A stretch of DNA of 6,101 nt from a virus (Duplodnaviria; Heunggongvirae; Uroviricota; Caudoviricetes), in IMG/VR virus record IMGVR_UViG_2534681978_000014. The stretch is one strand, 5' to 3'. A program made the position numbers and the translations under genes. This document shows positions 3,693 to 5,187 of this stretch, in pieces (the first letter of the stretch is position 1; each line of letters starts with the position of its first letter). The notes under the pieces are model-generated. The model was not told the DNA's origin and did no database searches. It worked only from the letters and a program-made list of their open reading frames with translations.

Positions 3693-5187
3693 TCTTTCAC
3701 ACATTATTGCCGCAGCATTCAATGAACCGCTGCTTCTGGAGCCCGCCTATGCGCGGGTTTTCTTTTGCGCGCTCGGGCGCGAGATGGGGGCAGCAAGTCT
3801 TTCGGTACCACAACAGCAGGTACAGCTTGATGCACCCGGAATGCTGGCTGAAACGGACGAGTACATGGCCGGAGGTAAACGACCGGCCCGTGTTTACCGG
3901 GTGGTGAACGGTATTGCTGTACTGCCGGTGACAGGCACGCTGGTGCACCGGCTGGGGGGTATGCGGCCATTTTCCGGAATGACAGGCTATGACGGCATTG
4001 TCGCCTGTCTTCAGCAGGCAATGGCAGATAGCCAGGTGCGGGGCGTACTGCTGGACATTGACAGTCCGGGCGGGCAGGCCGCCGGTGCGTTTGACTGTGC
4101 TGACATGATTTACCGCCTCCGTCAGCAGAAGCCGGTCTGGGCACTGTGCAATGACACGGCCTGTTCTGCAGCCATGCTGCTGGCGTCGGCCTGCTCCCGA
4201 CGGCTGGTTACCCAGACATCCCGTATCGGCTCCATTGGTGTGATGATGAGCCATGTCAGCTATGCCGGTCATCTGGCGCAGGCCGGTGTGGATATCACGC
4301 TGATTTACTCAGGGGCGCACAAGGTGGATGGCAATCAGTTTGAAGCGTTGCCGGAAGAGGTTCGCCAGGACATGCAGCAGCGGATTGATGCGGCGCGCCG
4401 GATGTTTGCCGAAAAAGTGGCGATGTATACCGGTCTGTCTGTTGATGCAGTCACGGGAACAGAGGCCGCCGTTTTTGAAGGTCAGTCCGGCATTGAGGCC
4501 GGGCTGGCGGATGAATTAATCAATGCGTCGGATGCCATCAGCGTGATGGCTGCGGCGCTGAACACACATGATACAGGAGGCACTATGCCGCAATTAACTG
4601 CAACGGAAGCTGCCGCGCAGGAGAACCAGCGAGTGATGGGGATCCTGACGTGTCAGGAAGCGAAAGGACGTGAACACCTTGCCACGATGCTGGCAGGACA
4701 ACAGGGCATGAGCGTTGAACAGGCCCGGGCGATTCTGACCGCGGCAGCACCACAGCAGCCGGTGGCATCCACGCAGAGTGAAGCCGATCGCATTATGGCG
4801 TGTGAAGAGGCTAAAGGTCGTGAACAACTGGCGGCAACGCTGGCGGCGATGCCGGAGATGACGGTGGAAAAAGCCCGCCCGATCTTGGCTGCCTCACCGC
4901 AGGCGGATGCCGGGCCCTCACTTCGTGATCAGATCATGGCCCTGGATGAGGCAAAAGGGGCAGAAGCGCAGGCTGAAAAACTGGCGGCCTGCCCGGGAAT
5001 GACCGTGGAGAACGCCCGGGCTGTGCTGGCTGCGGGATCAGGTAAGGCCGAACCGGTCTCTGCATCCACAACCGCCCTGTTTGAACATTTCATGGCGAAT
5101 CATTCACCGGCAGCGGTGCGGGGTGGCGTGTCACAGACGTCAGCAGACGGTGATGCGGACGTGAAAATGCTCATGGCCATGCCATGA
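3682..5187 (+). CDS. C: Head maturation protease / scaffold protein (lambda gpC-like, S49 peptidase family); GTG start assumed
   Basis: 501-aa ORF. The N-terminal region matches lambda gpC (FNEPLLLEPAYARVFFCAL; NGIAVLPVTGTLV; MTGYDGIV; GAFDCADMI; KPVWALCNDTACSAAMLLASACSRRLVTQT; GSIGVMM; ITLIYSGAHKVDGN; TEAAVFEGQSGIEAGLADELIN). The presumptive catalytic Ser is at codon 162 (nt 4165-4167). The start is a GTG at 3682, preceded by AGAGGAG at 3665-3671 with a ~10-nt spacer. It overlaps the B 3' end by 11 nt. Confidence 0.88.
   Translation: MRRNLSHIIAAAFNEPLLLEPAYARVFFCALGREMGAASLSVPQQQVQLDAPGMLAETDEYMAGGKRPARVYRVVNGIAVLPVTGTLVHRLGGMRPFSGMTGYDGIVACLQQAMADSQVRGVLLDIDSPGGQAAGAFDCADMIYRLRQQKPVWALCNDTACSAAMLLASACSRRLVTQTSRIGSIGVMMSHVSYAGHLAQAGVDITLIYSGAHKVDGNQFEALPEEVRQDMQQRIDAARRMFAEKVAMYTGLSVDAVTGTEAAVFEGQSGIEAGLADELINASDAISVMAAALNTHDTGGTMPQLTATEAAAQENQRVMGILTCQEAKGREHLATMLAGQQGMSVEQARAILTAAAPQQPVASTQSEADRIMACEEAKGREQLAATLAAMPEMTVEKARPILAASPQADAGPSLRDQIMALDEAKGAEAQAEKLAACPGMTVENARAVLAAGSGKAEPVSASTTALFEHFMANHSPAAVRGGVSQTSADGDADVKMLMAMP
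4575..4580 (+). promoter_or_regulatory. Internal Shine-Dalgarno sequence (AGGAGG) inside the C coding sequence, positioned for translation initiation at ATG 4585 (Nu3-like scaffold)
   Basis: AGGAGG is a perfect anti-SD complement, with a 4-nt spacer to an in-frame ATG. In the C frame it encodes the residues TGG in a linker-like segment. Confidence 0.55.
4585..5187 (+). CDS. nu3: Nested scaffolding protein (lambda Nu3-like), translated in frame from an internal start within C; ~200 aa
   Basis: The internal ATG at 4585 is in frame with C and is preceded by a canonical AGGAGG at 4575-4580 (4-nt spacer), a site that has no obvious coding reason to be there. The downstream sequence (ENQRVMGILTCQEAKGRE...GMSVEQARAILTAAAPQQ) matches the lambda Nu3 core as I recall it. 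Lambda Nu3 is likewise encoded in frame within the 3' third of C. Confidence 0.6.
   Translation: MPQLTATEAAAQENQRVMGILTCQEAKGREHLATMLAGQQGMSVEQARAILTAAAPQQPVASTQSEADRIMACEEAKGREQLAATLAAMPEMTVEKARPILAASPQADAGPSLRDQIMALDEAKGAEAQAEKLAACPGMTVENARAVLAAGSGKAEPVSASTTALFEHFMANHSPAAVRGGVSQTSADGDADVKMLMAMP
4627..5040 (+). repeat. Three tandem, diverged copies of a ~45-aa scaffold motif (period ~47-50 aa, ~141-150 nt) within the C/Nu3 C-terminal region
   Basis: Protein-level copies: QRVMGILTCQEAKGREHLATMLAGQQGMSVEQARAILTAAAPQQ; ADRIMACEEAKGREQLAATLAAMPEMTVEKARPILAASPQAD; LRDQIMALDEAKGAEAQAEKLAACPGMTVENARAVLAAGSG. Shared pattern: IM-x3-EAKG-x-E-x5-LA-x3-GM(S/T)VE-x-AR-x-(I/V)L-x-A. The copies are diverged at the nucleotide level. 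Confidence 0.75.

Follow-up and report, generated by a model that had tools for sequence, protein, structure and literature searches.

An internal start in the head protease gene of a phage-21-like virus is predicted to encode a Nu3-type scaffolding protein

The 6,101 nucleotides (nt) of IMG/VR virus record IMGVR_UViG_2534681978_000014 that were analysed here (the "window") form the left end of a lambdoid head-assembly operon. Within them, an open reading frame (ORF) at 3682-5187 is very probably read in two ways. From its GTG start it would be translated as a fusion of 501 amino acids (aa) between the head maturation protease and a scaffold tail, the homologue of lambda C and of phage 21 gene 5; by separate initiation at an in-frame ATG it would yield a 200-aa scaffolding protein (4585-5187) homologous to lambda Nu3 and phage 21 gene 6. 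Both genes, together with the protease domain, the internal Shine-Dalgarno (SD) sequence and the repeat boxes described below, lie on the plus strand. The nested gene is already known, being annotated at the equivalent bases in phage 21 and following the textbook lambda C/Nu3 design. The locus has the features of a lambda-type C/Nu3 pair: an N-terminal S49 protease domain in the 501-aa protein, an internal in-frame SD sequence and start just past that domain with a stop codon common to both products, a Nu3-type C-terminal region that includes the EA-x-GRE box, and a position in the head operon with a portal gene upstream and gpD-like and gpE-like genes downstream. It also carries the three tandem boxes of ~45 aa that characterize the phage 21 lineage.

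The predicted start of the nested gene can be read directly from the sequence, and it is where a first-pass annotation of this DNA had placed it. An AGGAGG SD sequence at 4575-4580, which reads Thr-Gly-Gly in the protease frame (ACA GGA GGC), is followed by a 4-nt spacer, CACT (4581-4584), and by the ATG at 4585-4587. This ATG is codon 302 of the 501-codon ORF and in frame with it ((4585-3682)/3 = 301), in agreement with the earlier estimate of about 300 codons into the protease gene, and the nested gene ends at the same stop codon as the protease gene (5185-5187). The nested product has a calculated mass of 20.6 kDa and is acidic (isoelectric point 4.9). Its predicted N-terminus is (f)Met302-Pro-Gln-Leu, giving the N-terminal peptide (f)MPQLTATEAAAQENQR.

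Among the 47 in-frame ATG, GTG and TTG codons of the ORF, ATG 4585 has the strongest predicted duplex with the anti-SD sequence (-10.3 kcal/mol), and the site at the ORF's own GTG start is weaker (-9.1 kcal/mol). The mRNA is also unusually open at this point. A 60-nt segment around ATG 4585 has a folding energy of -9.1 kcal/mol, versus an ORF mean of -17.7 ± 3.7 kcal/mol, which puts it at about the 99th percentile, in the least structured 1-2%, and makes it comparable to the genuine starts of the C, D and E genes. An internal promoter belonging to the nested gene was considered, but no sigma-70-like promoter was found in 3600-5700; any short product would therefore be translated from the same late mRNA as the long one.

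The closest annotated counterpart is phage 21. In record M81255 the ribosome-binding site (RBS) and the coding sequence (CDS) of gene 6 ("head-tail preconnector gp6") map to 4574-4578 and 4585-5187 of the window in a colinear alignment, and in the complete phage 21 genome (OL657228; 2022, PMC9119081) the equivalent RBS and CDS are annotated as "scaffolding protein". The 3682-5187 ORF aligns with phage 21 gene 5 without gaps at 96.7% nt identity, related E. coli phages scoring 96-97%. The gene 5/6 pair has the same GTG start, internal RBS, ATG at codon 302 and 200-aa nested product as the window, and the three boxes and the flanking genes are alike. Phage 21 gp6 and the nested product of the window share 95.5% aa identity. 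The substitutions near the start are few: the protease frame upstream of the SD sequence reads NTHDT-GGTM in the window and NSNVR-GGTM in phage 21, and the SD context is cAGGAGG in the former and gAGGAGG in the latter. In a collection of 15 billion proteins the exact phage 21 gp6 sequence was present on 42 contigs; the window's own 200-aa allele was not found in that collection.

Conservation of the start was examined in homologous loci drawn from phage records, IMG/VR contigs and one genome per species. At each locus the protease ORF was extracted, the end of the S49 domain was placed by alignment, and each in-frame start from 12 codons before to 25 codons after that end was scored. The sample comprises 140 non-redundant ORFs that range from 37% to 100% identity to the window's protease domain. 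The internal SD sequence and ATG proved to be conserved in relatives: an in-frame start lies 2-13 codons past the end of the S49 domain in 139 of the 140 homologues, this start is ATG in all but one (138 of 139), and GGAG is found no more than 16 nt upstream of it in 131. The conserved site is the internal start with the best SD sequence in 112 of the 140 homologues, and in 132 it is one of the best three. The same pattern is seen in Enterobacterales, Vibrio, Aeromonas, Pseudomonas, Marinobacter and one Xylella phage.

The variation around the start indicates what is being conserved. There are 70 distinct 23-nt start contexts, 63 of which contain GGAG, its commonest distance from the ATG being 5 nt. 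In a set of 86 distinct 63-nt segments, information content is high at GGAG (-9 to -6) and at the ATG and nowhere else, and the A-rich linker around the start is essentially unconserved. The GGA of GGAG is a Gly codon in 57 of the 63 distinct GGAG contexts, compared with a GGA share of 11.4% among Gly codons elsewhere in the same ORFs. The residue that follows this Gly varies (Gly in 27, Ala in 17, Val in 10 and Glu in 3), and its codon always begins with G. Because a rare GGA codon is kept and the first G of the next codon is fixed despite the varying residue, these contexts indicate that selection acts on the GGAG nucleotides, beyond any preference for a Gly-Gly linker.

The lambda C/Nu3 locus resembles the window in joining an S49 protease to a C-terminal scaffold tail, in operon order and in carrying the conserved box (ENSRIMGILNCEEAHGRE...); aa identity between the two is ~53%. 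The overlap of lambda C and Nu3, the roles of both and the function of Nu3 as a scaffold are described in PMC3224144, which, like other papers, cites Ray & Murialdo 1975, Shaw & Murialdo 1980 and Medina et al. 2010, 2011 for the pair. In our alignment Met302 of the window falls on lambda Met309, encoded by ATG 5342. This codon stands directly past the protease domain (...GGAGGGCGAATG), is preceded by GGAGGG, and is the best internal start in lambda C, with a strong SD sequence (-10.8 kcal/mol). The start of nu3 in the lambda reference, 5132 (201 aa), is codon 239, inside the S49 domain; its SD sequence is weak (-6.9 kcal/mol), and it does not align with the window start.

The lambda product homologous to the nested product of the window, beginning at ATG 5342, would have 131 aa and a mass of 13.4 kDa, and the conserved start implies that this protein, and not the 201-aa product of the reference, would be lambda Nu3. 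Gene callers predict the 131-aa lambda form on 165 contigs. Purified lambda gpNu3 reportedly has a mass of ~13.4 kDa, which agrees with the 131-aa form. Judged by the aligned starts, the likeness in length between the window product (200 aa) and the annotated lambda Nu3 (201 aa) is a coincidence; the extra length of the window product over its 131-aa lambda homologue comes from its three boxes, against a single box in lambda. The first-pass annotation had matched the window to the lambda arrangement. That match stands for the nested C/Nu3 layout, but not for the resemblance to the 201-aa Nu3, since the window start aligns with lambda 5342 and not with 5132.

Records of the lambda family also conflict among themselves on the nu3 start. 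HK630 carries the 201-aa form, and Lambda imm434 (OM418626) a GTG start at 5035 that gives 233 aa, and neither of these starts is the positional counterpart of the nested starts of phage 21, N15 and Sano; within the extracted loci the starts concerned are at 2333 versus 2543 in lambda NC_001416 (L003), at 775 in OM418626 (L010) and at 871 in HK630 (L011). A further group of lambda-type C genes was found on short, mostly low-coverage contigs (L101-L108, L110, L121, L123, L134, L144, L145, L154), with the lambda start context at every locus that could be scored. The assemblies are labelled Neobacillus, Chromatium, Kitasatospora, Shewanella, Leeuwenhoekiella, Akkermansia metagenome-assembled genome, Enterococcus and others, and the lambda-type C genes on them are most likely lambda DNA contamination.

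Other relatives show the same design. N15 genes 5/6, phi80 gene 5, Gifsy-1 STM2605 and the Xylella phage Sano all have an internal SD sequence and ATG at the alignment column of the window start. In the N15 record gene 6 is described as an "internal in-frame translational start within gene 5", and for Sano (genes 64/63) a nested "scaffold protein" is recorded along with an RBS of its own; in the phi80 and Gifsy-1 records the nested gene is unannotated. The Gifsy-1 protein has the three-box form of the window, with an identical cAGGAGGCACTATG, whereas N15, phi80 and Sano have one box and nested products of 137-142 aa. The proposal of a Nu3-like scaffold gene within the protease gene, with its own RBS and a common C-terminus, is thus borne out by the annotations of phage 21 gene 6, N15 and Sano together with the conservation of the SD sequence and ATG.

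A scaffold and a maturation protease with a common C-terminus, the protease being carried into the procapsid, are also found in herpesviruses (UL26 / UL26.5) and in phage P2 gpO. The shorter herpesvirus product comes from its own promoter and mRNA and not from an internal ribosome-binding site, and P2 gpO is a single fusion protein without a separately translated scaffold. Neither UL26/UL26.5 nor P2 gpO has detectable sequence similarity to the window gene.

The two parts of the 501-aa protein are readily distinguished. The S49 (SppA/ClpP-like) serine protease domain occupies 4117-4560 (Pfam PF01343 Peptidase_S49, E = 1.6e-35, residues 146-293) and ends ~8 codons upstream of the internal start. 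The protein matches PHROG 53, head maturation protease (E = 3e-229), and Ser162, Lys214 and other residues are invariant in an alignment of 7 homologues. Three stretches of the nested product match PHROG 8399, "head scaffolding protein" (E = 5e-35), and tblastn finds matches of the C-terminal region to lambda nu3 and N15 gene 6. No Pfam family was found for the 200-aa product, and a search of PDB sequences returned only a chance hit (E = 0.9).

There are three repeat boxes, all of them downstream of ATG 4585 and hence within the nested product. Box 1 lies at 4621-4755 (C residues 314-358), box 2 at 4780-4911 (367-410) and box 3 at 4921-5052 (414-457); the Tri1, Tri and Tri3 boxes of M81255 map to 4652-4755, 4792-4902 and 4933-5046, respectively. 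These positions, with the ORF coordinates, confirm the product sizes of 501 and 200 aa and the triplicated motif in the nested part that had been read from the letters alone. Tandem Repeats Finder, run on 4400-5250, did not detect the boxes at the DNA level and reported only a trivial 10-nt repeat, because the boxes are too diverged and are visible at the protein level only.

The structure of the nested product was also modelled. Most sequences retrieved from a protein database with the 200-aa product were fragments named "S49 family peptidase, partial", and they were of use only as input for the model. The AlphaFold2 model, built from a 17-sequence alignment, is of moderate quality (predicted local distance difference test, pLDDT, 67.5; predicted template modelling score, pTM, 0.27). 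It predicts three small helical modules at pLDDT 70-83, with linkers of low confidence between them and no fixed mutual arrangement; box 1 is modelled as a small helical module at pLDDT ~80. A Foldseek comparison of the model with the PDB gave nothing below E = 1.9, and no fold could be assigned to the boxes. The title of Medina et al. 2011 describes gpNu3 as intrinsically disordered, and the modular model with its loose linkers is in keeping with such a description.

The number of boxes varies within the family. A profile hidden Markov model made from the three window boxes was run on the 140 homologues and found no confident copy in 8, one in 84, two in 3, three in 40 and four in 5. The one-box class includes lambda, N15, phi80 and most others, and the three-box class includes phage 21, Gifsy-1 and the window. 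Four boxes occur on IMG/VR contigs of uncultivated phages (L052-L056), and two in L040, L059 and L095. The eight homologues with no confident box comprise six of the most divergent (45-51% identity) and two, L060 and L121, whose ORFs are short or irregular. In L040, which is 96% identical to the window family, box 1 breaks off halfway and continues cleanly as the second half of box 2, as expected from unequal recombination between boxes. We tentatively suggest, as a possibility that may well prove wrong, that the ~45-aa scaffold box is a module of variable copy number whose variants arise by unequal recombination, and that copy number might tune the capsid and portal contacts made by each scaffold and protease molecule.

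Several observations weigh against the conclusion that two products are made. Sequences of the form AGGAGG-N3-9-ATG are not rare by chance: the window has one and 0.30 are expected, and at least one match appeared in 49 of 200 shuffles. As the bare motif is not statistically unusual, its significance must come from context. The 4-nt gap between AGGAGG and ATG is rather short; measured from GGAG it is 5 nt, which is the commonest spacing among the homologues. Since these share ancestry, the counts given above overstate the number of independent events. The RBS of phage 21 is labelled "putative" in M81255, and many automated annotations, including those of RefSeq for E. coli prophages, call only one 501-aa "S49 family peptidase". 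For the phage of the window itself, two products are predicted from the sequence.

The chance frequency of the motif and the single gene called by most automated annotations would suit another scheme, in which only the 501-aa protein is translated, any free scaffold arises by self-cleavage as in P2 gpO, and AGGAGG-ATG is incidental to a Gly-Gly-x-Met linker. Fusions of protease and scaffold that lack a separate scaffold gene do exist, P2 gpO being an example. Nonetheless, we regard this scheme as highly improbable. Selection on the amino acids by itself would leave Gly free to use codons other than the rare GGA (57 of 63 contexts versus 11%), and it fails to explain the fixed G that opens the next codon while the residue changes. 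Nor would it preserve, amid an unconserved linker, an ATG spaced at a constant 5 nt in 138 of 139 homologues, or produce the local drop in mRNA structure that is typical of real starts. In lambda, moreover, genetics is reported to separate Nu3 from C (Shaw & Murialdo 1980). The near invariance of the ATG at fixed spacing tells equally against the idea that AGGAGG serves mainly as an SD-like translational pause that lets the protease domain fold, with no initiation, since a pause needs no start codon. This idea draws on the place of AGGAGG at a domain boundary, the internal start being ~8 codons past the end of the Pfam S49 match, and on the contested proposal that intragenic SD-like sequences pause ribosomes. 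Secondary structure is also depleted downstream of the ATG, however, and the downstream product belongs to a known scaffold family; we give a pause without initiation almost no credence.

A different objection is that the nested gene could be intact but silent, as a copy in a decaying prophage. It arises from a 1-nt insertion in the large-terminase gene, which is itself a point against present production of the two proteins: a T run at 39-43 of the window reads TTTTT, versus TTTT in phage 21 (M81255) and in E. coli FORC_069. The extra T shifts the frame at about codon 19 and leads to a premature TAA at about 88-90, and the ORF resumes at ATG 165. The insertion is either a homopolymer sequencing error or the mark of a defective prophage; if it is real, the prophage may be defective and its genes may not now be expressed as those of a working phage. 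We consider a silent copy unlikely, though it deserves some weight. A homopolymer insertion could equally be a sequencing error, and the remaining head genes of the window all have their full length, with 96-98% identity to those of functional phage 21. Even if correct, decay would bear on current expression only and not on the identity of the feature.

The arrangement that we favour, a separately initiated scaffold nested in the protease gene, suggests the following scheme. By analogy with lambda, we infer that two products are made in the phage of the window, as well as their relative amounts, targeting and degradation. One long late mRNA would have two ribosome entry points over 3682-5187. 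Initiation at GTG 3682 would give the 501-aa protein, an S49 domain with a C-terminal scaffold tail, probably in small amounts because the GTG start overlaps the stop codon of the portal gene. A separate initiation event at AGGAGG-N4-ATG (4575-4587), a strong and unstructured site immediately after the protease domain, would give a 200-aa acidic protein identical to that tail. This protein would be the abundant scaffolding protein, corresponding to lambda Nu3 and phage 21 gp6. The C-terminal modules common to both products, predicted to interact with capsid and portal, would allow a few proteases to be co-assembled with many scaffolds in the procapsid. The protease would then destroy the scaffold and itself, so that the shell could fill with DNA.

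The rest of the window, on the evidence of its gene content, identifies it as carrying the head-assembly operon of a phage-21-like lambdoid phage or prophage, and the whole of it is up to 98.1% identical to prophages in ~1850 of 5426 complete E. coli genomes. Its left edge holds the end of a small terminase gene and then the start of the large-terminase gene, whose ORF is readable at 165-1913. These are followed by a gpW gene (1897-2103, Pfam gpW), a lambda-family portal gene (2100-3692, Pfam Phage_portal_2, E = 1.8e-100), the protease gene, a gpD-like decoration gene (5224-5571, Pfam HDPD) and, at the right end, the start of a gpE-like capsid gene. This order (terminase, gpW, portal, S49 protease, gpD-like, E-like capsid) is the same in phage 21, lambda and N15. 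The GTG start of the protease gene overlaps the 3' end of the portal gene by 11 nt (3682-3692); the portal and gpW genes overlap at ATGA (2100-2103), and the gpW start lies 17 nt inside the terminase gene (1897-1913). The successive overlaps suggest translational coupling along the operon. Unlike these overlapping starts, the nested scaffold start is a free-standing strong site.

Some further sequence features were noted in or near the two genes. OL657228 annotates CII-binding sites just after the nested start, and these were rejected: the pattern TTGYN6TTGY occurs twice on the minus strand (4590-4603 and 4824-4837) versus 1.19 expected, and Gifsy-1 does not preserve the first of the two. The matches inside the scaffold gene are probably meaningless. 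Antisense ORFs at 4583-4768 and 4594-4827 were without support and were treated as spurious. Between the decoration and major capsid genes there is a perfect hairpin with a 9-bp stem at 5579-5600 (TCAGGCCAC CATG GTGGCCTGA), and a tail containing T comes after it. In N15 an analogous stem-loop between the decoration and capsid genes is annotated as a putative terminator, and the hairpin of the window could modulate the ratio of D to E expression or mRNA stability.

As a discovery the nested gene is of small value, because it is the classic lambda arrangement and is annotated in the ~97% identical phage 21; the variation in box copy number is the only mildly new thing that we have seen. Its practical value lies in annotation. 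Pipelines, including that of RefSeq for thousands of E. coli prophages, miss the scaffold gene, and the rule that emerges from the homologues, GGAG ~5 nt before an in-frame ATG that lies 2-13 codons past the S49 domain, could standardise scaffold annotation throughout the family.

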